Positions 41,501 through 63,173 of a stretch of 64,000 nucleotides of DNA are shown here, in pieces. Under the pieces are notes generated by a model. It ran no database searches and was not told the DNA's origin. It was given only the letters and a program-made list of their open reading frames with translations. The position numbers and the translations under genes are program-made. Source of the stretch: Pseudomonadota bacterium (GTDB taxonomy: Bacteria; Pseudomonadota; Alphaproteobacteria; Rhodobacterales; Rhodobacteraceae); the NCBI GenBank assembly GCA_038525395.1, contig JBCBHS010000002.1, positions 158,863-222,862 on the forward strand, read 5' to 3'. Every line of letters begins with the position of its first letter. The stretch's first letter is position 1.

Positions 41501-42490
41501 TTATCCCCCGGCCATCGCGTTGGACCGCGCTACCAGATCGACGCCCATCTGCGCCATCAGGTCCATGTAGTCCAAGCAGACCCAATTCTCGGCAATCTGC
41601 CCGTCCGCGCAGCGGTAGAAATCCATCACCCGCAAGGTCAGTGATCTGCCCGTCCCGGGCACCCCAAGATAGGGGGCCGCGTGGGTCATCGTCATCGACG
41701 GCCAGCCCGAGATCGCGGCATAATTGCCCTGCCCGATCCGGGCATAGTGGTTGCCCCCCTTGCGGTCGGGAAAGGCGGCAAGGAAGGGGGCGCGGTGATC
41801 CTTGACGAACCCGTCCCAGCGGTAGTTCGACCCGACCCCGCCCGGCCCGTACCACAGCATGTCATCGGCCCAATACCCGTCTTTGCCGGTCTGCCCCTTC
41901 GAGGCGCCGGTTTGCGGGTCATAGACGTGCAGATCGCCCAACATCGCCTCGATCAGATCAAGGCTGGCGGCGCCGTCGCCAGGGGGCAAGATACCGTCAT
42001 GGGTGGCGGGGGCTGGAAACAGCATCTCGGTCCCCAGCAGGCCACCAAAGGGGTCGCGCCCCGCCTGGCGCATCAGGTCCGGCAGGTCGAGGATGATCCG
42101 CGCCTCGACGATCTGGTCACCCTCGACGCGGTAAAACTCGCCCGCGCGCAGAAAGGCCAGGCGATTCGACGGCGCAGCGCCCCAAAGCGGGGTTGCAAAG
42201 GTGCCGACATAGTGGGTGATCGCCGCAATCCAGGTGCCGCCGACGGCCCGCCGGTTGGGTCCGGTGATAAACAGATCATCGCGCCGCCGGGCATGCCGCA
42301 GCGCGGCGCGCATGGGGCCATAGGCCAGGTCCCACGCGGCATCACGCCCGGCCAGATCGTTCACAGGATGCGAGAAATAAAAGGCGCAGTCGGGCGCGAC
42401 CACAGCGTCAAAACTGTGCCGCGCTGCAGCAGGATCGTCTTGCCACATGGCGTTGAGATGGGCGCGGATGCGCAGGATTTGATCAGACAC
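41501..42490 (-). CDS. Two-domain SnoaL/NTF2-like (ester-cyclase-like) protein, paralogue P1
   Basis: I prefer GTG 42490 (SD GAGGGG 5 nt upstream), because the track TTG start at 42526 lies inside the operator palindrome. The C-domain carries WYGPGGVG, FPDR, DFYR, ENWV and MAQMGVDL, shared with P2 and P3. Confidence 0.7.
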   Translation of the reverse strand: MSDQILRIRAHLNAMWQDDPAAARHSFDAVVAPDCAFYFSHPVNDLAGRDAAWDLAYGPMRAALRHARRRDDLFITGPNRRAVGGTWIAAITHYVGTFATPLWGAAPSNRLAFLRAGEFYRVEGDQIVEARIILDLPDLMRQAGRDPFGGLLGTEMLFPAPATHDGILPPGDGAASLDLIEAMLGDLHVYDPQTGASKGQTGKDGYWADDMLWYGPGGVGSNYRWDGFVKDHRAPFLAAFPDRKGGNHYARIGQGNYAAISGWPSMTMTHAAPYLGVPGTGRSLTLRVMDFYRCADGQIAENWVCLDYMDLMAQMGVDLVARSNAMAGG

Positions 42491-42508
42491 AAGGCCCCTC
42501 ACTTTGGA

Positions 42509-42528
42509 TTTTGCACACGTGTGCAAAA
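42509..42528. promoter_or_regulatory. Perfect 20-bp palindromic operator, LacI-family type
   Basis: TTTTGCACAC|GTGTGCAAAA has a central CG and fits the TGnnnnCGnnnnCA LacI-type operator shape. It lies in the divergent P1 / ABC-operon promoter region. The only LacI-family gene in the window is at 53580-54599. Confidence 0.65.
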
Positions 42529-42592
42529 AACAGTTGCCAAGTCCAAGGGCCGATGTCTAGCCTTTATCAACCAGCCGCGACGGGGGTATCCG

Positions 42593-43639
42593 ATGGCCGA
42601 AATCCAATTGCGCAACATCAACAAGCGTTGGGGCAGTTTTGTGGGGGTCGATAACTTTGACCTGACCATTGCTGACCAGGAATTTCTGGTACTGCTGGGC
42701 CCGTCTGGCTGTGGCAAGACAACGACTATGCGCATGATTGCGGGGCTTGAGGACGCGACCGAAGGCGACATTATGATCGACGGCAAGCGGGTCAACGATC
42801 TGGACCCCAAGGACCGCGATGTGGCGATGGTGTTTCAGTCCTACGGGCTGTACCCGCACCTGAATGTCTATGAAAACATTCGCTTTCCCTTGAAAGTCCG
42901 CAAGGTGGACCCCGGCAGCCATGACGAACGTGTGCGCCGGGCCAGCGCCATGGTCGAACTGGATGACTTCCTGCATCGCAAGCCCGCGGAACTCTCCGGC
43001 GGCCAGCGCCAGCGTGTGGCCCTGGCCCGCGCGATCGTGCGGGAACCGAACGTTTTCCTGATGGACGAGCCGCTGTCGAACCTCGACGCCAAGCTGCGCG
43101 TGTCGACCCGCGCGCAGATCAAAAACCTCAGCCACGAATTGAAGGTCACCACCGTCTACGTGACCCACGACCAGATCGAGGCGATGACGCTGGCCGACCG
43201 TGTCGTGGTGATGAAGCAGGGCAAGGTCCAGCAGGTCGGCACGCCCACGGAAATCTACGACCGCCCCGCCAACACCTTTGTCGCCAGCTTTATCGGCTCG
43301 CCCGCCATGAACCTGATGGAGGGGACGATGGCCGCCGGCACGTTCACCGGTGACAACGTCACGATCAGCGGCCTGCCCGCGCCGGACGGTCCCGTCACCA
43401 TGGGTTTCCGGGCCGAAGATGCATCGCTGGCAGACGCAGGCGGGCAGATCACCGCGCCGATCTACACGATTGAATTGCTGGGCGACGCCACGATGCTGAC
43501 GGTGCGCGCAGGCGGGCAATTGGTGTCGGTCAAAGCGCACAAGGAATTCCGGGCCGAGATCGGGGATACGGTGTCTTTCGCCATTCCACCCGCGATCTGC
43601 CACGCCTTTTCAACGTCTTCCGGCGAGCGTCTCGCCTGA
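42593..43639 (+). CDS. ABC transporter ATP-binding protein (MalK/UgpC-type, CUT1 family)
   Basis: 348 aa. Walker A GPSGCGKTT, signature LSGGQRQRVA, Walker B FLMDEPLSNLD, and a C-terminal TOBE-like regulatory domain. Confidence 0.93.
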   Translation: MAEIQLRNINKRWGSFVGVDNFDLTIADQEFLVLLGPSGCGKTTTMRMIAGLEDATEGDIMIDGKRVNDLDPKDRDVAMVFQSYGLYPHLNVYENIRFPLKVRKVDPGSHDERVRRASAMVELDDFLHRKPAELSGGQRQRVALARAIVREPNVFLMDEPLSNLDAKLRVSTRAQIKNLSHELKVTTVYVTHDQIEAMTLADRVVVMKQGKVQQVGTPTEIYDRPANTFVASFIGSPAMNLMEGTMAAGTFTGDNVTISGLPAPDGPVTMGFRAEDASLADAGGQITAPIYTIELLGDATMLTVRAGGQLVSVKAHKEFRAEIGDTVSFAIPPAICHAFSTSSGERLA

Positions 43640-43733
43640 GGTCCTGCCTGGCCGGGGGCACCCGGACCGGGCCAACACCCGTCCGTGCAGGCTTGCAAGA
43701 TGCACGGGCATATTCGCAACAGGGAGTTTGCAT

Positions 43734-44954
43734 ATGTATCTGAAGAAACTGGCACTGGCGGGCGCTGTCTCGCTTTTGGGCACCACGGCCTTTGCCGCGT
43801 GTTCCTATGAAAACGAGGTGCCGCTGAAGTCGCTGAGCGCGGGCTTTGAAGCGTGGAAAGCCGTCACCGACGCGATGGCCGAGTGTGGCAACTTCCAGGC
43901 CGAGCTGGACCAGGAATTCCGCACCAAACAGCCCGCCGCGTTCGAGGCGAACCCGTCGCTCTATCACATCGGTGGGGTGTCGAACGGCACCATCACGCCG
44001 CTGCTGAACGCCGGCACAATCCGTCCGCTGGACGATCTGGTCGCCAAATACGGCGCCAGCCTGTCGCCCAACCAGCTGATCCGCGTGGACGGCAAGATCA
44101 TGGCCGTGGCCATGATGGTGAACACGCAGCACCTGATGTACCGCACGGATATCTTCAGCGATCTGGGCCTCGAAGTGCCGACATCCTGGGACGAGGTCTT
44201 TGCCGCGGCCGACGCCATCCAAGAGGCAGGCGTTGTCGACTATCCCATTGGTGCGACAATGAAATCCGGCTGGAACTTGGCCCAGGAATTCGTGAACATG
44301 TATCCCGGGTTCGGTGGCGCGTTCTTTAACGATGACAACACCACCGCCATCAACTCCGACGCGGGGATGAAGGCGCTGGAGGTCATGGCCAAGACGCTGG
44401 AATACACCGACCCCGAGGTTCTGGTCAGCGACAGCACCTATGTGCAGCAGCAGTTCCAGCAGGGCAAGATCGCCATGTCCAACCTCTGGGCCTCGCGCGG
44501 CGGTGCCATGGATGACGAGAACGAAAGCCAGGTTGTGGGCAAGGTCGCAATGGCCGCAGCCCCCGTTGCCATGGACGGCGGCGCGCCTGCGACCACCCTG
44601 TGGTGGGACGGCATCGTCATCGCCTCCAACATCACCGACGAAGAGGCCGACGCCGCCTTCCGCCTGGTGATGGAGGGCCTGGACGAAGAGATGGTCACCG
44701 CCAACAACGAAGCGGCGATCTGGCTGGTCGGCGGCTATGCGCCCGGCCCGCTGGCCGAGGGTGCCATTGCCACAGCGACGGCACAGCCCGCACCGCCGCC
44801 CTATCCGTCGACCACACAGATGGGTCTGCTGCACACCGCCCTGGGCAACGAGCTGCCGTCCTTCCTGACCGGTGACCGCGACGCTGCCGCGACCCTGGTC
44901 GCCATCGAAGAGGCCTACACCACGTCGGCCAAAGAGGCCGGTGTGCTGGAATAA
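43734..44954 (+). CDS. ABC transporter substrate-binding protein (extracellular solute-binding family 1)
   Basis: ATG 43734 (SD GGGAG). Signal peptide MYLKKLALAGAVSLLGTTAFAAC (possible lipobox). About 400-aa SBP_bac_1-like body. Confidence 0.86.
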   Translation: MYLKKLALAGAVSLLGTTAFAACSYENEVPLKSLSAGFEAWKAVTDAMAECGNFQAELDQEFRTKQPAAFEANPSLYHIGGVSNGTITPLLNAGTIRPLDDLVAKYGASLSPNQLIRVDGKIMAVAMMVNTQHLMYRTDIFSDLGLEVPTSWDEVFAAADAIQEAGVVDYPIGATMKSGWNLAQEFVNMYPGFGGAFFNDDNTTAINSDAGMKALEVMAKTLEYTDPEVLVSDSTYVQQQFQQGKIAMSNLWASRGGAMDDENESQVVGKVAMAAAPVAMDGGAPATTLWWDGIVIASNITDEEADAAFRLVMEGLDEEMVTANNEAAIWLVGGYAPGPLAEGAIATATAQPAPPPYPSTTQMGLLHTALGNELPSFLTGDRDAAATLVAIEEAYTTSAKEAGVLE

Positions 44955-45011
44955 GCCACCACTCGGCTGGCCAGAGCGTACTCTCTGGCCAGCCCACTTT
45001 CCGGGGGACTG

Positions 45012-46520
45012 ATGAAAACCGAGTATGATCATATCGTTGTGGGCGGTGGCTCTGCTGGATGCGCGGTGGCTGCGCGTCTTGCCGAACGACCGGGCGCACG
45101 CGTGCTGGTGATCGAGGCGGGGCCATCGGATACCGACATCCGCGTGCGGGTGCCCTTTGGCCTGGTGCCGCTGATGCGCTCGGACCGGCGCAACTGGAAA
45201 CGCCAGACGGTGCCCATGGCTGCCGCAGGCGGTCGCCGCGTGGCGGTACCGCGGGGCAAGATGCTGGGCGGGTCGGGTTCGATCAACTCGATGGTCTGGT
45301 TTCGCGGCTGTCGCGCGGATTTCGACGCCTGGGGCCTGCCCGGCTGGGACAGTGCCACCGTTTGGCAGGCGTTTGACGCGGTCGAGGCGCGGATGACGCC
45401 CCGCCGCCTGCCGCACCCCCATGCCTTGTCCGACGCCTTTGGAGCGGTCTTTCCCGCCAATGATCCGGGCGCGCCGCCCACGCCCGAACGGCAAAGCGCG
45501 GGCGTGTTTCACACCAACATGCGCAACGGCGCACGGTGGTCCGCGGCAGACGGGTTCCTGCGCCCCAGCGGCGCAGAGGTGCTGACCGGGACCGAGGTGG
45601 ACCAGGTTTGCTTTGACGGGCAACGCGCCACTGGCGTCCGCTTGCGCGACGGTCGGCAGATTTCGGCGCGTGCTGGCGTTGTCCTGTCGGCAGGCAGTAT
45701 CGAAAGCCCGATGATCCTCATGCGCTCTGGCATCGGACCGGGGGACGACCTGCGCGCCGCAGACATCGACGTGCGCATTGACCAGCCGGGCGTGGGGGCA
45801 AACCTGCACGATCACCCAGGCTTTGGCCTGCATTTTAAGGGCCGCGGATCGGGCTATGGCCTGACCCTCGCACAACTGCCCGCCTGGGGCATTGCGCCGC
45901 TGCAGTGGTGGCTGGCGCGGTCGGGGCGGCTGACCTCGAACACGGTCGAGGCGGGGGCGTTCTACAGCGTTTCAGACAGCGGTACACCTGACATCCAAAC
46001 CCATTTCCTGCCCTTCCTCACGGGTTGGCAGGGACGGGCGATCATCTGGGGCGCGGGCTATTTCGCCGATGTGTGCCTGTGCCAGCCCCGCTCGCGCGGG
46101 CGGCTGCGCATCGGGGCAGATCGCTATAGCCCGCAGATCGACCTGAACCTGTTCGGCGATCCTTGGGACCTCGACATGATGACCCGGGGCGTTGCCCGCC
46201 TGCGCCAGCTGCTGGACAGCGCCGATTTCGGCCCGCGCCGCGCACCCGAGGCGTTCCCCGGCCCGCAGGTCACCGGTGACGCCCTGCGCGCGGTGATCCG
46301 CACGCGCGCAGGCACGGCCTATCACCCGGTGGGCACCGTCGCCTTGGGCGGCCCGCTGGATGCGCAGGGCGCGGTCAAGGGCACGCAGAACCTGTGGGTC
46401 GCGGACGCCTCCGTCATGCCGCGCATCACCTCTGCCAACACCAACGCGCCGTCGATGATGATCGGCTGGCAGATCGGCGGCCACGTGGCCGCCACCGCCG
46501 CAGAAAGGACAGCAGCATGA
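45012..46520 (+). CDS. GMC-family FAD oxidoreductase (choline-dehydrogenase-like), embedded in the ABC operon
   Basis: 502 aa. N-terminal FAD motif YDHIVVGGGSAGCAVAARLAE, GMC signature region GGSGSINSMVW, C-terminal GTAYHPVGT. The stop overlaps the permease start (ATGA). Confidence 0.92.
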   Translation: MKTEYDHIVVGGGSAGCAVAARLAERPGARVLVIEAGPSDTDIRVRVPFGLVPLMRSDRRNWKRQTVPMAAAGGRRVAVPRGKMLGGSGSINSMVWFRGCRADFDAWGLPGWDSATVWQAFDAVEARMTPRRLPHPHALSDAFGAVFPANDPGAPPTPERQSAGVFHTNMRNGARWSAADGFLRPSGAEVLTGTEVDQVCFDGQRATGVRLRDGRQISARAGVVLSAGSIESPMILMRSGIGPGDDLRAADIDVRIDQPGVGANLHDHPGFGLHFKGRGSGYGLTLAQLPAWGIAPLQWWLARSGRLTSNTVEAGAFYSVSDSGTPDIQTHFLPFLTGWQGRAIIWGAGYFADVCLCQPRSRGRLRIGADRYSPQIDLNLFGDPWDLDMMTRGVARLRQLLDSADFGPRRAPEAFPGPQVTGDALRAVIRTRAGTAYHPVGTVALGGPLDAQGAVKGTQNLWVADASVMPRITSANTNAPSMMIGWQIGGHVAATAAERTAA

Positions 46521-47545
46521 AGTTCAAGACCTTCTTCTGGTTCGTAGGGCCGTCCGTCTTTATGATGCTCTTGTTCATCGCGGCACCGCTGATTTCGGTG
46601 TTCCTGCAGTCGTTCCAGATCACCCAGCCCGTCGTCGAACGGGTCGAGGTGGAAACCTGCACGCCAGGCTTCCTCACCCAGACTTGCACGACGGAAGTCA
46701 AGACGATCCCCGTGATCGACGAGACCACGGGCAAGACGATGACCACGACCGAATGGGTCGGCTTGCAAAGCTATCAAAACGTGCTGCAGATGGACAAATT
46801 CTGGTCCGCCCTCGGCTCGGGCAACTGGAGCGCCATCCTGCAAATCGACTTTTGGAAGGCCCTGCGCTTTACGCTGATGTTTACGCTGGTGACGCTGCCC
46901 CTGGTGATCGGGGTGGGCCTGGCCATCGCGCTTGCGGTCAACAACGCGGCCAAGTCATTGCGCGGGCCGGTGATCTTTATCTCGCTTCTGCCGTTCATCA
47001 TCACGCCTGTGATCGGATCGCTGTCGATCTATTGGCTGTTTGTGGGTGACGGTATCCTCACGACCACGCTCGAACGCTGGCTGGATCGCGACATCGCCAT
47101 GTTTGCGCAGGCCTGGACGATCGAGCTGTTGATGTATTTCTACCGTGTCTGGCACGTGGCGCCCTTTGCCTTCGTGATCTTCTACGCAGGTCTGCAGACT
47201 GTGAACATGGACACGCTGGAAAGCGCGATCATCGACGGTGCCAACCGGTTTGAACGCCTGCGCTATGTGATTGTGCCGCATCTGATGCCGCTAATCATCT
47301 TTATCGCGCTCATCCACCTGATGGACTGCTACCGCGTGTTCGAAGAGGTCATCGGCTTCCGCAGCCAGGCGCATGTGATCTCGCTCCAGTGGCTGACCTT
47401 TGACTTCCTCACGCCGGATGATGCGGGCAACCGGGCGATCAGCCGGGCCTCGGCCAGCGCAATGCTGACCATGATCGGGATCGTCATCCTGCTGATCCTG
47501 CCACTGCGCCGCACCTGGCGCGACCATAAGGGAGGGGCGCACTGA
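46517..47545 (+). CDS. ABC transporter permease (MalF-like, long first periplasmic loop)
   Basis: ATG 46517 overlaps the GMC stop. 342 aa. BPD_transp_1 EAA-type loop DTLESAIIDGANRFERLRYVIVP. Confidence 0.88.
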   Translation: MKFKTFFWFVGPSVFMMLLFIAAPLISVFLQSFQITQPVVERVEVETCTPGFLTQTCTTEVKTIPVIDETTGKTMTTTEWVGLQSYQNVLQMDKFWSALGSGNWSAILQIDFWKALRFTLMFTLVTLPLVIGVGLAIALAVNNAAKSLRGPVIFISLLPFIITPVIGSLSIYWLFVGDGILTTTLERWLDRDIAMFAQAWTIELLMYFYRVWHVAPFAFVIFYAGLQTVNMDTLESAIIDGANRFERLRYVIVPHLMPLIIFIALIHLMDCYRVFEEVIGFRSQAHVISLQWLTFDFLTPDDAGNRAISRASASAMLTMIGIVILLILPLRRTWRDHKGGAH

Positions 47546-48699
47546 TGGCCTCGAAAGCAACGGCACAGCCGCTCTCGCTCAAGATCGCATCCGGCACCTT
47601 CCTCGCCTTCTGGTGCGTGCTGGCGGCCTTCCCGATCTTCTGGATCGCGGTGATGAGCTTCAAGTCCCCCCGCGACGCCTTTGCCGCCTCCGCCTGGGAC
47701 GTGATCACCGGACCGGTCACGCGCGCGTCCGGCAACGGTCTGTCCGTCCTCGACATCGTGCTGGGGCTGGCCTTTCTGTTCTTTGCCATCCGCTGGGCGT
47801 TCACAGGTCTGCCTGGCCTCGTCGCGCGCTATACCCCACCTGCCTGGATTGTGCTGGGCTGGCTGGTGGGCGCCGCCGTCTATGCGCTGGTCTTCGTCCT
47901 TGTATTCTTTGGCGTGCTGCCGCTGGTCTTTGGCGCGCTCAACAGCATTGCAGGCCCGCTGGGCGTGCCGATCCTGGGGCTCACAACCGAACACTATGTG
48001 GCGGTGTGGGTCGAGAATGAGTTTTACCGCAACTTCATGAACTCGATGATCGTGACGGCGGGTGTGGTCACCGTGTCGCTGACCGTGGGCACCTTGGCAG
48101 GCTACGGCCTTGCGCGGTCCGGCTCGAACCTCGCCTTCTGGCTCCTGATCTTTGCCCTCATCTTTCGCGCCCTGCCGCACTCGGTGCTGGTCGCGGGCTA
48201 TCTGCCCTGGTTCATCAACTCGGCCGAGATCCTGCGCCCCATCTTCGGAGAGATTTCGCCCACGCTCTACGGGCAACCCTGGGCGGTGATCGCGGTGCTG
48301 GTGGCGATCAACCAGCCGTTCACCATCTGGATGCTCCGCTCCTTCTTCCAAAACATCCCGTCCGAACTGGACGAGGCCGCGCGCGTCGACGGCTGCAGCC
48401 ATTTCCAAGCCTTCCGCCGCGTGATCATGCCGGTCATGTGGCCAGGGGTGATCACCACAGGGCTCTTTTCCTTCCTGCTGGGCTATAACGACTTCCTGGT
48501 CACCGCCCTGCTACTCGATGCGCAAAACCAAACCATGGTGCCGTCCATCGTCGGCTACTTTAACCGCGAGACGACGACGACCGACCAGGTCGAGGCCGTG
48601 GCCGCCGCGGTGTCGATCACGGCCCCGCTCTTTCTGCTGGTGATGGTGTTCCAACGCCAGATCGTGTCGGGCCTGACGGCCGGGGCGGTGAAAGGCTAA
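47545..48699 (+). CDS. ABC transporter permease (MalG-like)
   Basis: 384 aa. The ATG overlaps the upstream TGA. EAA loop ELDEAARVDGCSHFQAFRRVIMP. Confidence 0.88.
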   Translation: MASKATAQPLSLKIASGTFLAFWCVLAAFPIFWIAVMSFKSPRDAFAASAWDVITGPVTRASGNGLSVLDIVLGLAFLFFAIRWAFTGLPGLVARYTPPAWIVLGWLVGAAVYALVFVLVFFGVLPLVFGALNSIAGPLGVPILGLTTEHYVAVWVENEFYRNFMNSMIVTAGVVTVSLTVGTLAGYGLARSGSNLAFWLLIFALIFRALPHSVLVAGYLPWFINSAEILRPIFGEISPTLYGQPWAVIAVLVAINQPFTIWMLRSFFQNIPSELDEAARVDGCSHFQAFRRVIMPVMWPGVITTGLFSFLLGYNDFLVTALLLDAQNQTMVPSIVGYFNRETTTTDQVEAVAAAVSITAPLFLLVMVFQRQIVSGLTAGAVKG

Positions 48700-48702
48700 G
48701 CG

Positions 48703-48747
48703 TTTCTTCTGACCAAAAATACCTCGGGGTCCGGGGCAGCGCCCCGG
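48703..48747. repeat. Intergenic composite repeat, copy R5 (reverse arm variant plus CCGGGGC-agc-GCCCCGG hairpin)
   Basis: TTTCTTCTGACCAAAAATACCTCGGGG is the reverse complement of CCCCGAGGTATTTTTGGTCAGAAGAAA. Hairpin at 48731-48747. Confidence 0.55.
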
Positions 48748-48780
48748 TCCTGCCGCCACCCCATAGAAAAGGCTGTACCA

Positions 48781-49326
48781 ATGAAGGGTTCCCGCCCCGA
48801 ACAAGCGACACTGACACGCGATACCGACCTCAGCAAAACCGACGCCACCCGCGCCGTGATCGAAGGCATGGTGGACGGCCTGAACGACCACCGCATCGAC
48901 GATATCGGCCAGTTCTTCGCCCAAAACTTTCGCTGGATGGGCAACACGGGCTGCGGCACCAAGACCGGGCTGCGAGAGTTTCAAGACAACTGGCAACGCC
49001 CGTTCCAGGCGGCGTTCAGCGACAAGGTCTGCGTGGATGAGGCGCGGCTTTACATGGGCGAATGGGCCGCGGCCTTTGGGCGGCAAGAGGCCACGCATTC
49101 AGGCACGTTCATGGGTATCGCGCCGACCGGCAAGCGGGTCGAGATCCGGTATATGGACTTCTGGAAGGTCGAAGAGGACCGCATCACCGACAATTACGTG
49201 ATGGTCGATTTTCCCCACGTGCTGGCCCAACTGGGCCGGGACGTTTTCGATGGCGAAGGTTGGGAGGCCTTCGATCGCGGCGAAAAGACCCCGCCGCGTC
49301 CTGTCCCAAAGAACACGGGCAACTGA
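48781..49326 (+). CDS. Single-domain SnoaL/NTF2-like (ester-cyclase-like) protein, P5
   Basis: 181 aa. MDFWKVEEDRITDNYVMVDFPHVLAQLGRDVF mirrors the C-domain signature of P1-P3. Confidence 0.7.
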   Translation: MKGSRPEQATLTRDTDLSKTDATRAVIEGMVDGLNDHRIDDIGQFFAQNFRWMGNTGCGTKTGLREFQDNWQRPFQAAFSDKVCVDEARLYMGEWAAAFGRQEATHSGTFMGIAPTGKRVEIRYMDFWKVEEDRITDNYVMVDFPHVLAQLGRDVFDGEGWEAFDRGEKTPPRPVPKNTGN

Positions 49327-49335
49327 GGTGACGAG

Positions 49336-50664
49336 ATGACGATTGAATATTTGAAACGCGGCAAGCCAGAGGCGGAGCGGGCCGAAGACGACGCCAAGAC
49401 GCGCACCATTGTGGAGGCGACGCTGGCGGATATCGAATCGCGCGGCGATGCCGCCGTGCGGGCGCTGTCCGAAAAGTTCGATGATTATAGCCCCGACAGC
49501 TTTCGCCTGAGCCAAGCCGAGATCGACGCGCTGATCGCCGAGCTGAGCCCGCGCGAGTTGGAGGATATCAAGTTCGCGCAACAACAGGTGCGCGATTTTG
49601 CCGAAGCACAGCGCGCCTCGATGCTGGACATCGAGGTCGAGACGATGCCGGGCGTGATCCTGGGCCACAAGAACATCCCCGTCCAATCGGTGGGGTGCTA
49701 TGTGCCGGGCGGCAAGTTTCCCATGGTCGCCTCGGCCCACATGTCCGTGGCCACCGCCAGCGTTGCGGGTGTGCCCCGCATTATCGCCTGCACGCCGCCC
49801 TGGCAGGGCAAACCCAACCCGGCGGTGATCGCGGCCATGCATCTGGGCGGCGCGCATGAGATTTACGTCATGGGTGGTATCCAGGCGGTGGGCGCCATGG
49901 CCATCGGGACCGAAACGATTGATCCGGTACATATGCTCGTGGGGCCCGGCAATGCCTTTGTGGCCGAAGCCAAGCGCCAGCTTTTTGGCCGCGTGGGCAT
50001 CGACCTCTTTGCAGGTCCGACCGAGACGATGGTGATCGCCGATGACACGGTCGACGCCGAGATGTGCGCGACGGACCTCTTGGGCCAGGCCGAGCATGGC
50101 TACAACTCCCCGGCTGTTCTGCTCACCAACTCGCGCAAATTGGCGGAGGCGACGATCGACGAAGTGGACAGAATTTTGAAAATTCTGCCCACAGCGGAGA
50201 CCGCAGCGACATCTTGGGCGGACTACGGCGAGATTATCCTTTGCGACACCTACGAAGAGATGCTGGCGGTTGCCGATGATGTGGCCTCGGAACACGTGCA
50301 GGTGATGACCGACCGCGACGATTGGTTTTTGGAGCATATGACGTGCTACGGCGCGCTGTTCCTTGGCCCCCGGACCAATGTCGCCAATGGGGACAAGGTC
50401 ATCGGCACCAACCACACCCTGCCCACCAAAAAGGCGGGGCGGTATACTGGCGGTCTGTGGGTCGGCAAGTACCTCAAGACCCACAGCTATCAGAAGGTGC
50501 TGACAGACGAAGCGGCGGCGGAGATTGGCGCGTATGGCTCGCGGCTGTGCATGCTTGAAGGGTTTGTCGGCCATGCCGAGCAGTGCAATCTGCGGGTGCG
50601 CCGCTATGGCGGGGTGAACGTGCCCTATGGGGAGGGCGCACCTGCCCGCGACGCGGCGGAGTAG
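49336..50664 (+). CDS. Histidinol-dehydrogenase-family (HisD-like) NAD-dependent dehydrogenase, non-histidine context
   Basis: 442 aa. HisD-type blocks [59 protein letters not shown] and NHTLPT are present. No his genes are nearby. Confidence 0.88.
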
Positions 50665-50701
50665 CGCAATACTCCAGCGGCGTGGTGCTTGAGGTGGAGT
50701 T

Positions 50702-50756
50702 GGGGGGCTTTGCCCCCCGGCTGCGCCTCCCCCCAGGATTTTTTGGAACAGAGAAG
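50702..50756. repeat. Intergenic composite repeat, copy R6 (hairpin plus forward arm)
   Basis: GGGGGGC-ttt-GCCCCCC (50702-50718) followed by CCTCCCCCCAGGATTTTTTGGAACAGAGAAG (50727-50756). Confidence 0.65.
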
Positions 50757-50765
50757 TAGACCCCC

Positions 50766-51776
50766 GTGGCCGAAAGCGACAACCAGCGGAACAAAGAGAC
50801 GGCCTTGGCCTTGTGGGCGGCATTGGACAGCGATCCTGCCACGGCGCTGGGCCATTTGGATCATGTTGGGCACTGGCAGGGGCCGGAGCCTGTCGGGGTT
50901 CAGACCACTGGATCTGGCATCGTGGAAAGCTTGTTTGCGCCGTTGCGGGCGGCGATCCCGAATTTGCGGCGTGAGACGCATATCTTTTTGGGGGGGCAAT
51001 CCTCCGCCCATGAGGATGGCGCGGGAGACGGTGCGTGGTGGGTGGCCGGGACCGGTTATTACACGGGGCGGGCTGTGCGGGACGTGTTTGGCATACCGGC
51101 GACGGATCACGATCTGCGTATTCGGTGGGGCGAGTTTTTGCGCTTTGACGCGGCGGGGCGGATCACCCATGCGCAGACCATTTGGGATTTTGTCGATTGG
51201 TGCGACCAGATCGGGCGCCCGGTGCTGCCGCCCCCGCGCGGGGCGCTGCACGTCTATCCTGCACCCACCGCATATGACGGTGTGCTGGCCGATCCGCAGG
51301 ATGTGGGCGAGACGGCGGAAACGCTGCGCTTTGGCCGCGACTTCATCTTTGGCGGGCTGAACAAGTTTGACGAAAGCGATCTGTCCAGCATGGGCATGGC
51401 GCGCTTTTTCCATCCGAATATCAAGTGGTATGGACCTGGCGGCATCGGTGCGTGCCTATCGCTGTCCGAGTTTGAGATGCGGCACCAGCAGCCCTGGCTG
51501 ACCGCCTTCCCTGACCGCAAGGTCATGCATCTCGAGAGCCTCTTTGCCGAGGATCGGATGCTGGCGGCCTCTGGCCCCATGGGCGTTGTGGGCAGCCATG
51601 GTGGTCCGTATTTGGGCCATGCCGCGACCGGTGCGCGGATCGAGGTGTCGGGCCTAGATTTCTGGCTGCGCACGGGCGGGCAATTTACCGAGAACTGGGT
51701 GTTTGTGGACATGGTACATCTATTTCAGCAGATGGGGATCGACCTGTTGGGCCGCGTGCAGGGGCAGGGCGGATGA
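50766..51776 (+). CDS. Two-domain SnoaL/NTF2-like protein, paralogue P2
   Basis: 336 aa (GTG start, weak SD). C-domain WYGPGGIG, FPDR, DFWL, ENWVFVD, QQMGIDL. The stop overlaps the P3 start (ATGA). Confidence 0.68.
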   Translation: MAESDNQRNKETALALWAALDSDPATALGHLDHVGHWQGPEPVGVQTTGSGIVESLFAPLRAAIPNLRRETHIFLGGQSSAHEDGAGDGAWWVAGTGYYTGRAVRDVFGIPATDHDLRIRWGEFLRFDAAGRITHAQTIWDFVDWCDQIGRPVLPPPRGALHVYPAPTAYDGVLADPQDVGETAETLRFGRDFIFGGLNKFDESDLSSMGMARFFHPNIKWYGPGGIGACLSLSEFEMRHQQPWLTAFPDRKVMHLESLFAEDRMLAASGPMGVVGSHGGPYLGHAATGARIEVSGLDFWLRTGGQFTENWVFVDMVHLFQQMGIDLLGRVQGQGG

Positions 51777-52822
51777 CCGATACGCATAGCGCCAACAAAG
51801 CCCTGATCGCGCCGTTGCGGGCGGCCATGTACGACTTTGACCTGGCCGCGTTGCGCCAGGTTTTGCACGACATCTGCGCATCCGACGTGGTCTTTCGCCT
51901 GGCCTTTCCGTTTGAAAGTATCGTGGGCGTGGATGCCTATGTCGACGCCGTCTATGCCCCCCTGCTGGCGGCCTGGCCGGACATGGAGCGGCGGGATCAC
52001 ATCGTGATGGCTGGCCCCACGCCTGAAGGGCACGATTGGGTTGGCTGTGGCGGATACTATACGGGCACGTTTGGCGCGCCCTGGCTGGACATCCCGCCCA
52101 CAGGCCACGTGGTGCACATGCGTCATCACGAATTTTACCGCATTGCCTCGGGCAGGATTGTCGAGATGCAGGCGCTGTGGGACATCCCCGAGGTGGTGAT
52201 GCAGGCGGGCGCCTGGCCGATGGTGCCGTCGCTGGGGCGCGAATGGCACGTGCCTGGCCCTGCGACCAGCGATGGGCTGGTGCCCGGCCCCTATGACGCG
52301 CAGGCGGGGCAGGCCACGTGCGCACAAATCATCGACATGCTCACCCATATGAAGAAACACCCCGGCCAAGGCGGGCCCGAAGTGATGGAGATGGCGCGGT
52401 TCTGGCATCCCAAGATGATGTGGTACGGGCCTGGCGGTATCGGCACGGGCCGCGGGATTGCGGGCTTTCGCAACTGGCACCAGATCCCGTTCCTGAACGC
52501 GATGCCGGACCGCGGGCAATATGTGGAGGACATCACCTATCACTTCTTTGGCGACCGGAACTATGCCGCCGTGACAGGCTGGCCAGACATGTACCAGACG
52601 GTCACGCATGGGGGCTGGCTAGGCCTGCCACCAACCCATAAGAAGATCGAGATGCGCAGCCTGGATTTTTGGCGCGTTGAAAACGGTCTGATACGGGAGA
52701 ATTGGGTGATGGTGGACATGTTGCAGATGTACGACCAACTGGGCGTCGACGTGTTTGCGCGGCTGCGCGAGTTCAACAAGGCACGCGCCGGGTTTGACCC
52801 AGACACTGGGTGCGCGCTGTGA
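51773..52822 (+). CDS. Two-domain SnoaL/NTF2-like protein, paralogue P3
   Basis: 349 aa. C-domain WYGPGGIG, MPDR, DFWR, ENWVMVD, DQLGVDV. The N-domain (YYTGTFGAPWLDIPPTGH...EFYRI) parallels P1 and P2. Confidence 0.72.
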   Translation: MTDTHSANKALIAPLRAAMYDFDLAALRQVLHDICASDVVFRLAFPFESIVGVDAYVDAVYAPLLAAWPDMERRDHIVMAGPTPEGHDWVGCGGYYTGTFGAPWLDIPPTGHVVHMRHHEFYRIASGRIVEMQALWDIPEVVMQAGAWPMVPSLGREWHVPGPATSDGLVPGPYDAQAGQATCAQIIDMLTHMKKHPGQGGPEVMEMARFWHPKMMWYGPGGIGTGRGIAGFRNWHQIPFLNAMPDRGQYVEDITYHFFGDRNYAAVTGWPDMYQTVTHGGWLGLPPTHKKIEMRSLDFWRVENGLIRENWVMVDMLQMYDQLGVDVFARLREFNKARAGFDPDTGCAL

Positions 52823-53580
52823 CCGCGCTGCCTCGCACCCCGTCGCTGGATCTGAGCGGCAAGCGCGCTTTGGTCACCGGCGCCTCGTCCGGCATCGGCC
52901 TGGGCTGCGCTGTGGCCTTGGCCGAGGCGGGCGCGCATGTGGTCTGTGCCGCACGCCGGGCGGAGGTATTGCAGGATGTCGTGTCGGCCATGACCGACCA
53001 AGGCTGGTCGGCTGAAGCGTTGCAGCTGGACCAGACCGACCTGGCCAGCCTGCGCACTGCGTTTTCGGATGCCTTCGACGTGGTTGTGAACTCGGCCGGC
53101 CTGGCGCGGCACGGGCCTGCGGTCGAGGCGACGCCTGAGGATTTTGACGCGGTGGTTAGCATCAACTTGCGCAGCGCATATTTCCTGTCGGCCTATGCGG
53201 CGCAGGCGCTGATGGCGGCGGACAAGCCGGGGTCAATCATCCACATCTCGTCCCAGATGGGCCATGTGGGCGGCATTGACCGCAGTGTCTATTGCGCAAC
53301 GAAACATGGGGTGGAGGGCATGGTCAAGGCCATGGCCATCGAGTGGGGCAAGGCGGGCATTCGCATCAACACGATCTGCCCGACCTTCATCCGTACCGCG
53401 CTGACGCAATCCACCTTTGAGAACCCAGCGCGGCTGGCTTGGATCATGGACAAGATCAAGCTGCCGCGCGTGGGCGAGGTCGAGGACATCATGGGCGCGG
53501 TCCAATTTCTGGCCTCGGACGCGTCAGGCATGGTCACGGGCACTTCGATGCTGATCGACGGAGGCTGGACAGCGGACTGA
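52810..53580 (+). CDS. SDR-family oxidoreductase
   Basis: TGASSGIGLG cofactor motif and catalytic YCATKHG (YxxxK). The start is GTG 52810 or GTG 52819; the latter makes a GTGA overlap with the P3 stop. Confidence 0.9.
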   Translation: MRAVTALPRTPSLDLSGKRALVTGASSGIGLGCAVALAEAGAHVVCAARRAEVLQDVVSAMTDQGWSAEALQLDQTDLASLRTAFSDAFDVVVNSAGLARHGPAVEATPEDFDAVVSINLRSAYFLSAYAAQALMAADKPGSIIHISSQMGHVGGIDRSVYCATKHGVEGMVKAMAIEWGKAGIRINTICPTFIRTALTQSTFENPARLAWIMDKIKLPRVGEVEDIMGAVQFLASDASGMVTGTSMLIDGGWTAD

Positions 53581-54599
53581 TGGGCGAGAAGGTGACAGCG
53601 CTGGATGTGGCGGAGCGGGCGGGCGTCTCGCGCTCGGCCGTCAGCCGCGTCTTTACGCCTGGGGCCTCGGTGTCGAAACATACGGCAGCGAAGGTGCGAC
53701 AGGCGGCGGATGCGTTGGGCTATCGCCCCAACGTGCTGGCGCGCAGCCTGATCACCGGGCGCAGCCGTATCATCGGCCTTGTCGTCGCCTATCTGGAAAA
53801 CCAGTTCTATCCCGAAGCGATCGAACGGCTGAGCCGCACCTTGCAAGAGCAAGGCTATCACGTGCTGGTCTTCATGGCTTCGAACTCGGTCGATGAGGCC
53901 GACGAGGTGATGGAAGAGCTGTTGGATTACCAGGTCGATGGGATCATCGCGGCCAGCGTGGGCATGTCGAACGACCTCACCCGGCGGTGCGAGGCGGCGG
54001 GCATCCCCATCGTGCTGTTCAACCGCGCGCAAGACGACGACCGGCTGTCGGCGGTCACGTCCGACAACTACCACGGCGGGCGCAAGCTGGCCGAGTTTCT
54101 GGTTGCCGGTGGCCACGCCCGCATCGCGCATATCGCGGGGTGGGAGGGCGCCTCGACCCAGCGGGACCGCGAGGCGGGGTTTGTCGCGGGGCTGCGCGCC
54201 TCGGGTCAGACGCTGGCGGCGCGGGGTGTGAGTGATTTTGACTTTGAGCGCGCGCAAGAGGTCGCGCGCGAGATGTTTGCAGGCCCCGACCGGCCTGATG
54301 CGGTGTTCTGCGCCAACGACCACATGGCCTTTGCCGTGATGGATGTGCTGCGGTTCGAGCTGGGGATATCGGTGCCGGGGGATGTGTCTGTCGTGGGCTA
54401 TGACGACGTGACGCTTGCGGCCTGGCCCAGCTATGACCTGACGACCGTACGCCAACCCGCGGGCCAGATGGCGCAGGCCTGCGTCGATATTCTGATGGAT
54501 CGCCTTGCTGATCCTGACACCAAACCCCGCCGTGTGGCGTTGGATGGCCCGCTCATCCTGCGCGGATCGGCCCGCAGACCCAAAGGATGGACGCCATGA
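53580..54599 (+). CDS. LacI-family transcriptional regulator, embedded mid-operon
   Basis: ATG 53580 shares one base with the SDR stop (TGATG). HTH VTALDVAERAGVSRSAVSRVF and a periplasmic-binding-protein-like sugar-binding core. The stop overlaps the P4 start (ATGA). Confidence 0.9.
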   Translation: MGEKVTALDVAERAGVSRSAVSRVFTPGASVSKHTAAKVRQAADALGYRPNVLARSLITGRSRIIGLVVAYLENQFYPEAIERLSRTLQEQGYHVLVFMASNSVDEADEVMEELLDYQVDGIIAASVGMSNDLTRRCEAAGIPIVLFNRAQDDDRLSAVTSDNYHGGRKLAEFLVAGGHARIAHIAGWEGASTQRDREAGFVAGLRASGQTLAARGVSDFDFERAQEVAREMFAGPDRPDAVFCANDHMAFAVMDVLRFELGISVPGDVSVVGYDDVTLAAWPSYDLTTVRQPAGQMAQACVDILMDRLADPDTKPRRVALDGPLILRGSARRPKGWTP

Positions 54600-55564
54600 A
54601 GGGCTTTTCGAACCGGTGGAAGGATTTCCCGGACTACATCATCGGCATCACCAAGGAGATCTGGGAAGACCGCGGCATCGCGACCCTGCACCACTATTAC
54701 AGCCCCGACATCGTCGTGCGGTCGCCAGCGAGCGTGGTGATCGGCAATGAAAAGGTGATCGGCGCCACCATGGCGACCCTGGCCGAGTTTCCCGACCGGA
54801 CGCTGCTGGGCGAGGACGTGATCTGGAGCGGGACGCCGGAGGAGGGCATGCTGTCCTCGCATCGCTTGCTGTCGACGGCGACGCATTTGGCGGACGGTGT
54901 CTATGGCAAGGCGTCGGGCAAAAGGCTGACCTATCGCATCATCGCGGACTGTCATGCGATCAACGACCAGATCAACGATGAATGGCTGATCCGCGACCAG
55001 ACGGCCATCGTGAACCAGATCGGCTGGGACGCCAAAGAGTACGCGGCGGACCTGATTGCACGCGAGGGCGGGCCAGAGCACGCGGTGCGCCCGCTGACCC
55101 CTGCGACGGACCAGCCAGGCCCCTACACAGGGCGCGGCAATGACAATGCGTGGGGCCAGCGGTACGCCGATATCCTGACCCGGATCATGGGCGCCGACAT
55201 GGCGGTGATCCCTGCGGAATACGACCGTGCCGTGCAGTCGGAATACCCCGGCGGGGCCACGGGCCACAGCCACGGGCCGGTGGACCGGTTCTGGATGGGC
55301 CTGCGCGCGTCCTTTCCCGACGCCACCTTTTCCATCGACCATCAGATCGGTCGGGATGACGACCTGATGCCGCCCCGCGCCGCGATCCGCTGGGCGCTTC
55401 ATGGCAAGCATGACGGCTGGGGCTATTTCGGGGCGCCCACAGGGGCCGAGGTCTATGTCTTGGGCATTTCGCATGCCGAGTTCGGGCCCTGGGGGCTGCG
55501 CCGGGAATATACGCTGTTTGATGAGACGGCGATTTGGAAGCAAATCCTGCTCCAGACCGGCTAG
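54596..55564 (+). CDS. Two-domain SnoaL/NTF2-like protein, divergent paralogue P4
   Basis: ATG 54596 (ATGA overlap, SD AAAGGA). N-domain FPDR...DEWLIRD. C-domain FPDATFSIDH...EYTLFDETAIWKQI. More distant from P1-P3. Confidence 0.62.
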   Translation: MKGFSNRWKDFPDYIIGITKEIWEDRGIATLHHYYSPDIVVRSPASVVIGNEKVIGATMATLAEFPDRTLLGEDVIWSGTPEEGMLSSHRLLSTATHLADGVYGKASGKRLTYRIIADCHAINDQINDEWLIRDQTAIVNQIGWDAKEYAADLIAREGGPEHAVRPLTPATDQPGPYTGRGNDNAWGQRYADILTRIMGADMAVIPAEYDRAVQSEYPGGATGHSHGPVDRFWMGLRASFPDATFSIDHQIGRDDDLMPPRAAIRWALHGKHDGWGYFGAPTGAEVYVLGISHAEFGPWGLRREYTLFDETAIWKQILLQTG

Positions 55565-55574
55565 GGTGGGATGT

Positions 55575-55600
55575 GCATATTTTTGGAACAATGAAGGGGT
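55575..55600. repeat. Degenerate arm of the intergenic repeat family, copy R7
   Basis: GCATATTTTTGGAACAATGAAGGGG. Compare ATTTTTTGGAACAGAGAAG in R6. It also matches 22 nt inside the acd CDS at 25677-25698. Confidence 0.45.
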
Positions 55601-55606
55601 GAGGCC

Positions 55607-56221
55607 GTGCAAAGATATGACACGCTTATGTTCACGCCCAAAGTCCGCGCCTTGCAGGAGGCCGAAGGCGCGGCAGAGATGTACGCCCGCAGCTACGGCG
55701 CGCGCACCCACGCGCTGACTGCGGATGAGGTGGCGTTTATCACCTCGCGCACATCGTTCTATATGGCGAGCGTGTCCGAGACCGGCTGGCCCTATATCCA
55801 GCATCGGGGCGGGCCTGCGGGGTTTCTGAAGGTGCTGGACGATCACAACCTGGCCTTTGCCGATTACCGGGGCAACAAGCAGCACATTTCCGAAGGGAAC
55901 CTGGCGGGCGACGACCGTGTGTCGCTGTTTTTGATGGACTACCCCCGCAAGGCGCGGATGAAGCTGCAGGGCCGCGCCGATTTTGCCGATGCCGCGGACG
56001 TGCCGGACCTGGCGGCGCAGGTGGCCACGCCGGGCGAAGGCCGGGTGGAGCGGGTGGTGACCATCGCGCTTGCGGCTTTTGACTGGAACTGCCCCCAGTT
56101 CATCACGCCCCGCTTTGACGCGGCCGAGGTTGCGCAGCTGGTGGCGCCCGAGATGGACAAGCTGCAGGCACGCATCGCCGCGCTGGAGGCCGAGAACGCC
56201 GCGTTGAAAGGCGAGGGATGA
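55607..56221 (+). CDS. Pyridoxamine-5'-phosphate-oxidase-like FMN-binding split-barrel protein with a C-terminal coiled coil
   Basis: 204 aa (GTG start, SD AAGGGG). SFYMASVSETGWPYIQHRGGPAGFLKVLD...YRGNKQHIS fits the PNPOx-like fold. The tail is LQARIAALEAENAALKGEG. Confidence 0.68.
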   Translation: MQRYDTLMFTPKVRALQEAEGAAEMYARSYGARTHALTADEVAFITSRTSFYMASVSETGWPYIQHRGGPAGFLKVLDDHNLAFADYRGNKQHISEGNLAGDDRVSLFLMDYPRKARMKLQGRADFADAADVPDLAAQVATPGEGRVERVVTIALAAFDWNCPQFITPRFDAAEVAQLVAPEMDKLQARIAALEAENAALKGEG

Positions 56222-58315: not shown

Positions 58316-58330
58316 ACCAGGAGACACCCA

Positions 58331-59455: not shown

Positions 59456-59461
59456 GGGGGG

Positions 59462-61904: not shown

Positions 61905-61917
61905 CGCAACAGGTCCT

Positions 61918-61975
61918 CTTCTCTGTTCCAAAAAAATCCCGGGGGTGAGGCCGCAGGCCGAGGGGGCTGGCCCCC
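61918..61975. repeat. Intergenic composite repeat, copy R8 (reverse arm plus hairpin)
   Basis: CTTCTCTGTTCCAAAAAAATCCCGGGGG (61918-61945), then GGGGGCTGGCCCCC (61962-61975). It fills the gap between the ADH stop and the dehydratase start. Confidence 0.65.
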
Positions 61976-63070: not shown

Positions 63071-63173
63071 ATCTGTCCCTTACTCCGTCCTCGCCGGGCT
63101 GGCGCGATGTGTTGCTGAGTTTGATTTGACGGTGGCGCAGGCGGCCTGCGCTCGCAAGACCGATTGCGACGTA

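Follow-up and report, generated by a model that had tools for sequence, protein, structure and literature searches.

Proteins of the SnoaL/NTF2 fold have been described as single-domain tailoring enzymes (SnoaL, AknH, SnoaL2, AclR and IdmH) and, with two NTF2 domains, as the polyether epoxide hydrolases Lsd19 and MonBI-MonBII, whose context is biosynthetic. Other described systems come close in other ways: LacI-regulated sugar and polyol operons built around a CUT1-type ATP-binding cassette (ABC) importer, the hps genes for 2,3-dihydroxypropane-1-sulfonate (DHPS) in roseobacters and Cupriavidus, and the LigK/GalC lower pathway of protocatechuate 4,5-cleavage and gallate. Here, we analysed a locus that resembles each of these in part. 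It encodes five NTF2-fold proteins (P1 to P5), an importer, a HisD-like dehydrogenase and a LacI-family regulator, and lies in a 64,000-nt stretch of DNA (the window) from Pseudomonadota bacterium (Rhodobacteraceae; assembly GCA_038525395.1, contig JBCBHS010000002.1, positions 158,863–222,862 of the forward strand). From its gene content, protein folds, homology, synteny, modular recombination and an operator-like site, we consider it probable that this is a LacI-repressed, two-module catabolic locus for an imported, hydrophilic, non-phosphorylated metabolite. Consistent with the first-pass annotation of the window, which could name no matching pathway, the literature searched (open-access and bioRxiv text) yielded no characterised pathway and no paper on this gene set.

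All five predicted SnoaL/NTF2 open reading frames are present where they had been placed: P1 (41501–42490, minus strand, 329 amino acids) and, on the plus strand, P5 (48781–49326), P2 (50766–51776), P3 (51773–52822) and P4 (54596–55564). Each exceeds the Pfam gathering scores of both SnoaL (PF07366) and SnoaL_2 (PF12680). Against the SnoaL cut-off of 28.4 bits, P1 through P5 score 81.5, 58.6, 84.8, 49.0 and 65.8 (E = 5.7e-23, 7e-16, 5.8e-24, 6.6e-13 and 4.3e-18, respectively), with two matched stretches each in P1, P3 and P4. The two-domain proteins P1, P2 and P3 are full-length paralogues by BLASTP (30–37% identity, E 1e-34 to 1e-58; P1-P3 37%, E 1e-58; P2-P3 36%, E 1e-46; P1-P2 30%, E 5e-38), and their translations contain the motifs that had been reported for them, WYGPGG(I/V)G, (F/M)PDR, DF(W/Y), ENWV and Q(M/L)G(V/I)D. 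The single-domain P5, which carries DNYVMVD...QLGRDVF, aligns with the C-domains of P1, P2 and P3 (31–34% identity, E 1e-15 to 1e-19). P4 is a divergent two-domain member that matches the other four weakly by BLASTP (E 1e-4 to 0.06); however, hhalign of a 42-member P4 family alignment against a P1–P3 alignment gave 97% probability and E 9e-11 over 295 collinear columns, which indicates that the two-domain architecture is itself ancestral. A tblastn search of the whole 64-kb window returned no further copies, and the clustering of these genes is therefore not background.

Structure prediction agrees with the sequence comparisons, so that the NTF2 fold and the mutual homology claimed for P1–P5 both stand. 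AlphaFold2 models of P3 (pLDDT 85.6, pTM 0.88) and P4 (pLDDT 97.3, pTM 0.94) each form a pair of alpha+beta cones, and Foldseek searches of the PDB with the individual domains recovered SnoaL2, AclR, IdmH, ChaU and the Jannaschia protein 3kkg at TM-scores of 0.7–0.87, with a Foldseek probability of 1.00 for SnoaL2, AclR, IdmH and 3kkg. The window proteins thus share Pfam family and fold with the SnoaL-type tailoring enzymes, but differ from them in being fused two-domain proteins of ~330 amino acids in an importer-linked catabolic operon, at 12–24% identity. Lsd19 and the MonBI-MonBII complex, the top Foldseek hits, are the sole solved proteins that match both domains at once. Their whole-chain TM-scores are just 0.30–0.39 (rmsd ~16–18 Å, identity 8–16%), and the domain packing therefore differs. 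Among the conserved positions, R90, D134 and D309 of P4 do not vary and D118, R265 and H272 hardly do; the corresponding set in P3 is R73, R117, R123, D137, H236, D246, R247, D298 and E309.

Both families are large. P3 has 6351 database relatives, P4 has 1124 among 1.84 billion representatives at 50% identity, and at 90% identity both families exceed 6000 clusters each; all of the relatives are annotated as “ester cyclase” or “NTF2 family”. P4 is present in every NTF2-containing version of the locus examined, with orthologues in Ruegeria, Paracoccus, Ensifer and Vibrio that are 65–82% identical. An MMETSP transcriptome of eukaryotic plankton also contains a 92%-identical P4 homologue (P0169), presumably contributed by a Tateyamaria-like bacterium in the algal culture; if so, a P4-type gene is expressed in algal co-culture.

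The locus extends well beyond the five NTF2 genes and the adjoining importer and oxidoreductases that had been recognised. This content was confirmed, but the boundaries were not: a co-directional array of 19 genes runs from 42593 to 60675 on the plus strand, with P1 divergent from it, and includes a bicupin, a MetE-like and an RraA-like gene downstream of P4. The order is ATPase, solute-binding protein (SBP), GMC flavin oxidoreductase, two permeases, P5, HisD-like dehydrogenase, P2, P3, short-chain dehydrogenase/reductase (SDR), LacI, P4, PNPOx-like, DUF6653, bicupin, S-adenosylmethionine (SAM) methyltransferase, MetE-like, RraA-like and CIA30. Intergenic gaps range from -13 to +101 nt, and 4-nt start/stop overlaps are frequent. 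Pfam supported the identities given earlier to the neighbours (SBP_bac_1, two BPD_transp_1 permeases, ABC ATPase, GMC, Histidinol_dh, SDR and LacI). The placing of the ATPase gene is corrected: it is on the plus strand, with P1 on one side and the SBP gene on the other. A promoter/terminator consensus scan of 41.3–61 kb gave counts no higher than in shuffled sequence.

To assess distribution, we scanned one genome per GTDB species for P3 relatives and compared the best 80 loci, 58 of them full-length, by tblastn of the window proteins. Far from being a one-off, the locus belongs to a widespread group: the scan turned up P3 relatives in 507 GTDB species, with Tateyamaria, Roseobacter, Sulfitobacter and Roseibium as the sources of the 80 best loci. 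Fifty-three of the 58 full-length loci are collinear for a core of ATPase, SBP, permeases, P5, HisD, P3, SDR, LacI, P4 and bicupin. The ATPase, SBP and permease genes are each found in 55–58 of the 58, and P5, HisD, P3, SDR, LacI, P4 and bicupin in 57–58, the bicupin in all of them. MetE-like genes are present in 54/58 and RraA-like genes in at least 45/58 (a lower bound set by flank length). P5 orthologues, 80–97% identical, lie immediately 5′ of HisD in every full-length locus.

The locus was also described as an island, a label that its surroundings do not support. Its GC content (0.63–0.66) is the same as in the remainder of the window, the composition profile of the window carries no island signature, and the flanking genes are syntenic in many relatives. 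Yet Paracoccus alcaliphilus, Ruegeria conchae, Tritonibacter mobilis and Ensifer adhaerens carry the cluster on plasmids or chromids, P4 orthologues lie on plasmids of Marinovum and Octadecabacter, and in Phaeobacter piscinae the cluster is chromosomal. On a plasmid of Phaeobacter inhibens DOK1-1, a remnant stands between IS3 and IS481 transposases, with an annotated ABC ATPase and a P4 orthologue (69%) only, which suggests locus decay or mobilisation on plasmids.

The importer is complete. It comprises a MalK/UgpC-type ATPase with C-terminal OB/TOBE domains (42593–43639; ABC_tran, OB_MalK, TOBE_2), a periplasmic SBP of the SBP_bac_1 family and CUT1 type with a signal-like N-terminus (43734–44954; E 2.6e-23), and two BPD_transp_1 permeases (46517–47545 and 47545–48699; E 7e-21 for the second). 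The SBP has no close solved, liganded relative in a PDB sequence search, the best match being 5iai (E 3e-16). Four of the loci compared (L002, L062, L065 and L076) encode enzymes 62–87% identical to those of the window, with an SBP merely 39–47% and a permease 1 41–44% identical, which suggests an importer swap or a changed ligand specificity within one pathway.

Regulation by the LacI-family protein (53580–54599, start picked from the translation) is suggested by a perfect 20-bp palindrome, TTTTGCACACGTGTGCAAAA (42509–42528), found by reading the sequence and occurring once in the window. It occupies the divergent promoter region of P1 and the ATPase gene, and is intergenic because P1 starts at a GTG at 42490. 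The palindrome core, TGCACnCGnGTGCA, is found exactly once in 55 of 90 loci, 59–83 bp upstream of the ATPase start, and TTGCA-N6-TGCAA variants occur in Paracoccus, Ruegeria and Phaeobacter. It is likely the operator of the LacI protein, which combines an N-terminal LacI helix-turn-helix with a periplasmic-binding-protein-like effector domain (Peripla_BP_1/3/4) and would bind this conserved site. With its SBP_bac_1 receptor, two permeases, MalK-type ATPase, LacI repressor and palindromic operator-like site, the locus resembles LacI-regulated CUT1 sugar and polyol operons, and the importer-linked catabolic setting proposed for it is supported. Unlike such operons, it contains no kinase, glycosidase or isomerase, and its Vibrio version has an SSF symporter instead of the ABC importer.

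Versions of the locus in other taxa divide it into two modules. In Vibrio alginolyticus and V. coralliilyticus, one block encodes an alpha/beta-hydrolase, bicupin, SDR, HisD (69% identical to the window protein), HpcH/HpaI aldolase, LacI and a tripartite ATP-independent periplasmic (TRAP) importer, DctPQM; the adjoining block encodes an orthologue of P4 (69%) and a two-domain protein resembling P3 (40%), together with an SSF symporter and another LacI. A plasmid of Roseibium aggregatum carries TRAP, HisD (85%), SDR, LacI, bicupin, alpha/beta-hydrolase and RraA genes; next to them are genes for another HisD (48%), an amidase, a P4-like protein and an ABC importer, again with LacI. The modules also occur singly. 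Vibrio pelagius has an ABC importer with four two-domain NTF2 proteins only, and Antarctobacter heliothermus has LacI, TAXI-TRAP, HisD (GGKFPM), SDR, RraA and HpcH genes with no NTF2 gene nearby; the Antarctobacter set is without bicupin and hydrolase, whereas the Vibrio and Roseibium sets include both. In Deinococcus sp. QL22, hisD (61%), HpcH aldolase, alpha/beta-hydrolase and a single-domain cupin homologous to the bicupin N-domain stand on one side, and an SBP, permeases and four NTF2 proteins, every one of them P4-like, along with a second hisD and a C-N hydrolase, on the other. Sinorhizobium medicae and Ensifer contain further variants, some with an amidase. The NTF2 proteins thus travel with a neutral-solute importer (ABC or SSF), and the HisD/SDR/cupin/hydrolase/aldolase set travels with an anion importer (TRAP). 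In Deinococcus and Vibrio, an HpcH/HpaI aldolase replaces the RraA-like protein of the window, and the filling of the same slot by two unrelated pyruvate-aldolase families argues for a retro-aldol end step. The nearest solved relatives of the Roseibium TRAP SBP are DctP-type proteins (4p47, 4p9k/4pak, 4pdh and 4nq8; E 5e-51 to 5e-46), several of which were reportedly solved with small hydroxy-acids (erythronate or pantoate).

Two further gene associations were seen among these versions. Heterotetrameric sarcosine oxidase genes and purU adjoin the NTF2 and ABC module on a V. pelagius plasmid (L084:465–5707); they could hint at N-methyl or glycine-type products or be a coincidence, and we do not use them as evidence. 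Ensifer adhaerens p-2 carries, at ~18.4–27.3 kb and a few kb from its main cluster, a second paralogous cluster with P4-like, SBP (37%), permease, two-domain NTF2, Zn-dependent alcohol dehydrogenase-like and LacI genes, and the duplicated loci may handle related substrates.

On the basis of this modular arrangement, we propose that the CUT1 importer brings in a neutral or zwitterionic conjugate, on which the NTF2 proteins, as cofactor-free enzymes, would perform acid/base chemistry (C-N or C-O hydrolysis, isomerisation or dehydration). P4 and a P3-type protein would form the minimal pair, with P1, P2 and P5 as additional paralogues that serve variant substrates or steps. These paralogues suggest a family of related substrates, as do the independent expansion of P4-type proteins in Deinococcus and the SBPs of only 39–47% identity in otherwise orthologous clusters. 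The product of this upper module would be an anionic core bearing a -C(OH)-CH2OH group, which some bacteria would also import directly through TRAP. In the lower module, the HisD-like Zn/NAD enzyme would turn the hydroxymethyl into a carboxylate and the SDR (52810–53580; adh_short_C2 8.6e-55; best NCBIfam match KduD-like, below cut-off) would make a ketone from a secondary alcohol. The bicupin, through its metal-binding N-domain and helped in most relatives by a PcaD-like alpha/beta-hydrolase, would open or de-esterify the skeleton, and the RraA-like protein would finally split a 4-hydroxy-2-oxo-dicarboxylate of the 4-hydroxy-4-methyl-2-oxoglutarate/4-carboxy-4-hydroxy-2-oxoadipate (HMG/CHA) type into pyruvate and a second 2-oxo acid. 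By analogy with such aldolase substrates, HisD would supply the 4-carboxylate and the SDR the 2-oxo group.

The first-pass annotation favoured the opposite order, in which an alcohol, polyol or glycoside is imported, oxidised first by the GMC, HisD-like and SDR enzymes, and passed late to NTF2 isomerase, dehydratase or cyclase steps. Since all of the enzymes stand in one operon, the order is unreadable from the window alone; CUT1 importers usually carry sugars or polyols, and the constant position of P5 next to HisD also speaks for this alternative. However, some HisD/SDR/aldolase sets have a TRAP importer of their own and stand without NTF2 proteins, and NTF2 proteins can accompany an importer where the oxidoreductases are absent; the locus also encodes no kinase, glycoside hydrolase or sugar isomerase. 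The GMC enzyme (45012–46520; GMC_oxred_N/C), moreover, drops out as a general part of the pathway. Its gene is inserted between the SBP and permease genes, its stop overlapped by 4 nt by the ATG of permease 1 (ATGA), and is found in only 14 of the 58 full-length relatives, a subset of Tateyamaria-like genomes, being absent from the Paracoccus, Ruegeria and Phaeobacter clusters. Nor does it score as the choline dehydrogenase BetA (TIGR01810, 283 versus a cut-off of 732 bits; PRK02106, 345 versus 605). We therefore regard the oxidation-first order as unlikely: the pairing of modules with importers in Vibrio, Roseibium and Antarctobacter indicates that it is probably inverted.

The composition of the lower module raises another possibility, to which we give slightly less weight: a ring compound with a hydroxymethyl group, such as a glycoside-free aromatic alcohol, a kojic-acid-like pyrone, or ascorbate and other reductones. 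The cupin would then act as the dioxygenase that cleaves the ring, an ester or lactone hydrolase and a LigK-like aldolase would follow, and the NTF2 proteins would serve as tautomerases or dehydratases. The trio of cupin, PcaD-like hydrolase and RraA or HpcH aldolase does recall ring-cleavage lower pathways, and a TRAP importer fits an anionic core. In the bicupin (56751–57716; Cupin_2 1e-14), the HxHxxxE metal motif of the N-domain (HSHRTAE) is kept in all orthologues aligned, including the single-domain Deinococcus form, and the motif of the degenerate C-domain is not conserved. The alpha/beta-hydrolase of the relatives is most similar in NCBIfam to the PcaD enol-lactonase, below cut-off. 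The RraA-like protein (59462–60154; E 1.2e-17), a putative class II pyruvate aldolase/decarboxylase, scores 65 bits against PF03737 (cut-off 24.5). Its R-D pair (VMRDLGD) is conserved in five orthologues and may correspond to Arg123/Asp124 of the P. putida structure. Cupin dioxygenases usually have a third His ligand, which this cupin is without; no named dioxygenase, PcaD or LigK model scores above cut-off; and a ring-cleavage scheme does not explain why two to five NTF2 paralogues go with a second importer, or why some versions have an amidase and a C-N hydrolase.

Among described systems, the LigK/GalC lower pathway comes close. It shares with our locus an RraA-family protein at the operon end that is interchangeable with an HpcH/HpaI aldolase, and an aldolase preceded by a hydrolase and a metal cupin. 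The locus differs in a LigK score far below cut-off and in having no LigAB, LigC, LigI or LigJ. Membership in the lig/gal lower pathway was rejected on the equivalog scores, and NCBIfam holds no equivalog-level name for the alpha/beta-hydrolase, the RraA-like protein or the bicupin. PDB sequence searches with the RraA-like and MetE-like proteins returned distant, uncharacterised matches only.

The HisD-like dehydrogenase (49336–50664; Histidinol_dh 9e-134) brings a sulfonate pathway into consideration, with this enzyme as an HpsN making sulfolactate and the SDR in the HpsO/HpsP role. Its best PDB matches are the HpsN structures 8v35 and 8wwe (~50% identity, E 1e-114), and alignment with them shows that it keeps the catalytic SEH and GDK segments (equivalents of HpsN Glu318, His319 and Asp352), in line with the four-electron alcohol-to-acid oxidation predicted for it in the first annotation. 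In several taxa, HisD homologues of this kind are paired with a TRAP importer and an SDR, as in hps loci, and the TRAP-hisD-SDR order in Roseibium and Vibrio is like that of hpsKLM-N-OP. The two enzymes can be told apart by a motif that reads G-R-Y-A/S-H in HpsN, where the final His126 binds the sulfonate, and G-S-A-P-L in HisD (PMC11382572). The window protein has G-K-F-P-M (within GGKFPM), with Met in place of His126, and all cluster-linked homologues have G-G-(K/R)-(F/Y)-P-(M/L/I). Furthermore, no SuyAB, Xsc, CuyA, sulfite exporter or other desulfonation family is present among the Pfam-annotated open reading frames between 39 and 64 kb, and the HisD-like gene is coupled to cupin, hydrolase, aldolase and NTF2 genes, unlike in hps loci. 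The sulfonate reading failed the His126 motif test and was rejected; we rate it as very improbable.

The same enzyme is not a biosynthetic histidinol dehydrogenase. It passes the domain model TIGR00069 (429 versus a cut-off of 243.8 bits), which is why public records name the gene hisD, but it fails the full-length HisD equivalog PRK13770 (233 versus 647 bits) and its gene sits in a catabolic operon rather than in a his-operon context. As its motif differs from those of HpsN and HisD while the catalytic residues are kept, the enzyme is neither of the two and represents a third type of the HisD fold.

A polyketide-type biosynthetic cluster, to which the public ester or polyketide cyclase annotation of all five proteins and the nearest folds among anthracycline and polyether tailoring enzymes would point at face value, is scarcely credible: no polyketide synthase (ketosynthase/chain-length factor), non-ribosomal peptide synthetase, acyl carrier protein or exporter was found among the open reading frames of the locus, which has a binding-protein-dependent importer, a LacI repressor and aldolases, with TRAP and SSF importers in other taxa. 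In the equivalog search, P5 alone matched the SnoaL nogalonic-acid-methyl-ester cyclase model NF033407 (35.6 bits versus a cut-off of 200); with no polyketide synthase and no equivalog, a polyketide or SnoaL-type cyclase pathway was rejected.

Several points weigh against the two-module catabolic pathway that we favour. We infer every chemical step and the substrate, and the order of the modules comes from gene neighbourhoods only; in Roseibium and V. alginolyticus, where the modules are adjacent, they could act in parallel on two related imported compounds. The lower module is also not uniform, since Deinococcus is without an SDR and the Vibrio SDR is just 25% identical to that of the window. 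By tblastn, the alpha/beta-hydrolase of the relatives, like their amidohydrolase, has no counterpart in the window. The bicupin, whose second cupin motif has Arg in place of His, has no solved relative in a PDB sequence search and no named relative in NCBIfam, and the RraA-like protein scores only 27.2 bits against the LigK model TIGR02798 (cut-off 304.5).

Mycosporine-like amino acids (MAAs) are abundant UV sunscreens of algae, cyanobacteria, corals and fungi, and they offer a chemically coherent candidate substrate that would fit every conserved gene of the locus. We suggest, as a speculative and on balance unlikely assignment, that the locus may be a bacterial pathway for mycosporines and MAAs in which 4-deoxygadusol is an intermediate and pyruvate and oxaloacetate are the end products. 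Uptake of MAAs would be the task of the ABC (or SSF) importer, and the two hydrolysable vinylogous C-N bonds of these compounds match the two core NTF2 enzymes: P4 and P3 would hydrolyse these bonds in turn, converting an imino-MAA to mycosporine-glycine and then to 4-deoxygadusol, with release of amino acids. The amino-acid or amino-alcohol substituents of MAAs vary, which the additional paralogues and alternative SBPs would accommodate, and the amidase and C-N hydrolase of some versions would take side chains of glutaminol or glutamine. Direct entry through TRAP would also be open to the anionic core (4-deoxygadusol or gadusol). The HisD-like enzyme would then make a carboxylate of the C7 hydroxymethyl group on the tertiary carbinol, and the cupin, with O2, would cleave the enolised 2-methoxy-1,3-dione to the methyl ester of 4-carboxy-4-hydroxy-2-oxoadipate. 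Models for such a cleavage are Dke1, acireductone dioxygenase and quercetinase. The alpha/beta-hydrolase would remove the methyl group, a step that the MetE-like protein may perform instead in the hydrolase-free lineage of the window, and the RraA or HpcH aldolase would yield pyruvate and oxaloacetate.

Bacteria have been reported to convert shinorine and porphyra-334 to mycosporine-glycine and 4-deoxygadusol, and Vibrio harveyi is credited with hydrolysis of both compounds' hydroxyamino-acid substituents, with no genes named (PMC3083659). We found no genes for bacterial MAA or gadusol breakdown in the open-access and bioRxiv literature. Many marine Vibrio and Photobacterium carry P4 orthologues, among them V. 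alginolyticus, a relative of V. harveyi, and P3-like proteins occur in Vibrio as well. Other reductone-type or deoxy-sugar-acid cores would fit parts of the lower module equally well; we considered ascorbate, kojic acid, 3-deoxy-aldonic and isosaccharinic acids, and pantoate or erythronate, weighing them by chemical logic alone.

The remaining genes of the array are less constant. GMC, P2 (25/58 full-length loci), the PNPOx-like FMN protein (55607–56221; PNPOx_N 1e-10; 35/58), the DUF6653 protein (56218–56754; Pfam 6e-48; 24/58), the class I SAM methyltransferase (57704–58315; Methyltransf_25 1e-17; 24/58) and the CIA30-domain protein that closes the array (60151–60675; CIA30 1e-24; 22/58, a lower bound owing to the flank limit) are lineage-specific accessories. 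The CIA30 family is known from mitochondrial complex I assembly, and another CIA30 gene (L086:17938–18465), 31% identical, lies ~3.5 kb from the Deinococcus cluster, so that the association recurs. The MetE-like protein (58331–59455; Meth_synt_2 8e-13), with the catalytic domain of cobalamin-independent methionine synthase, is 83% identical in R. conchae. Upstream of the GMC gene, an inverted repeat of 15+15 nt with no loop (GGCTGGCCAGAGCGT/ACTCTCTGGCCAGCC, 44965–44994, 93% complementary) falls within the 57 nt that separate the SBP stop codon from the start of GMC; it could form a hairpin that stabilises the mRNA behind the SBP gene, or be a scar left when GMC was inserted.

A convergent set on the minus strand (60672–63980) encodes an enolase-superfamily dehydratase, which is galactonate/gluconate dehydratase-like below cut-off, a Zn-dependent alcohol dehydrogenase and a major facilitator superfamily transporter. 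In at least 42 of the 58 full-length relatives, the dehydratase gene keeps its synteny with the locus, and the set may be a separate sugar-acid operon or a functional neighbour. Immediately upstream of P1, a fused E1 alpha+beta 2-oxoacid dehydrogenase/transketolase-like protein of 716 amino acids (39131–41281) has an orthologue, 68–83% identical, in 20/58 of the full-length relatives.

What is new here is a widespread, probably catabolic pathway whose distinctive enzymes are fused double-NTF2 proteins. The gene set spans marine Roseobacteraceae (Tateyamaria, Roseobacter, Sulfitobacter, Phaeobacter and Ruegeria), Roseibium, marine Vibrio and Photobacterium, soil rhizobia and Deinococcus, and thus more than one phylum; across classes, the identity of the key enzymes is unusually high (65–95%). 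This spread and constraint point to a common environmental substrate that is assigned to no genes in current models of marine dissolved organic matter turnover. A first physiological role would follow for the large fused double-NTF2 family that is now annotated as “ester cyclase”, and HisD-fold dehydrogenases gain a third specificity class beside HisD and HpsN. If MAAs or gadusol prove to be the substrate, the fate of a major class of UV-screening metabolites would become genetically testable.

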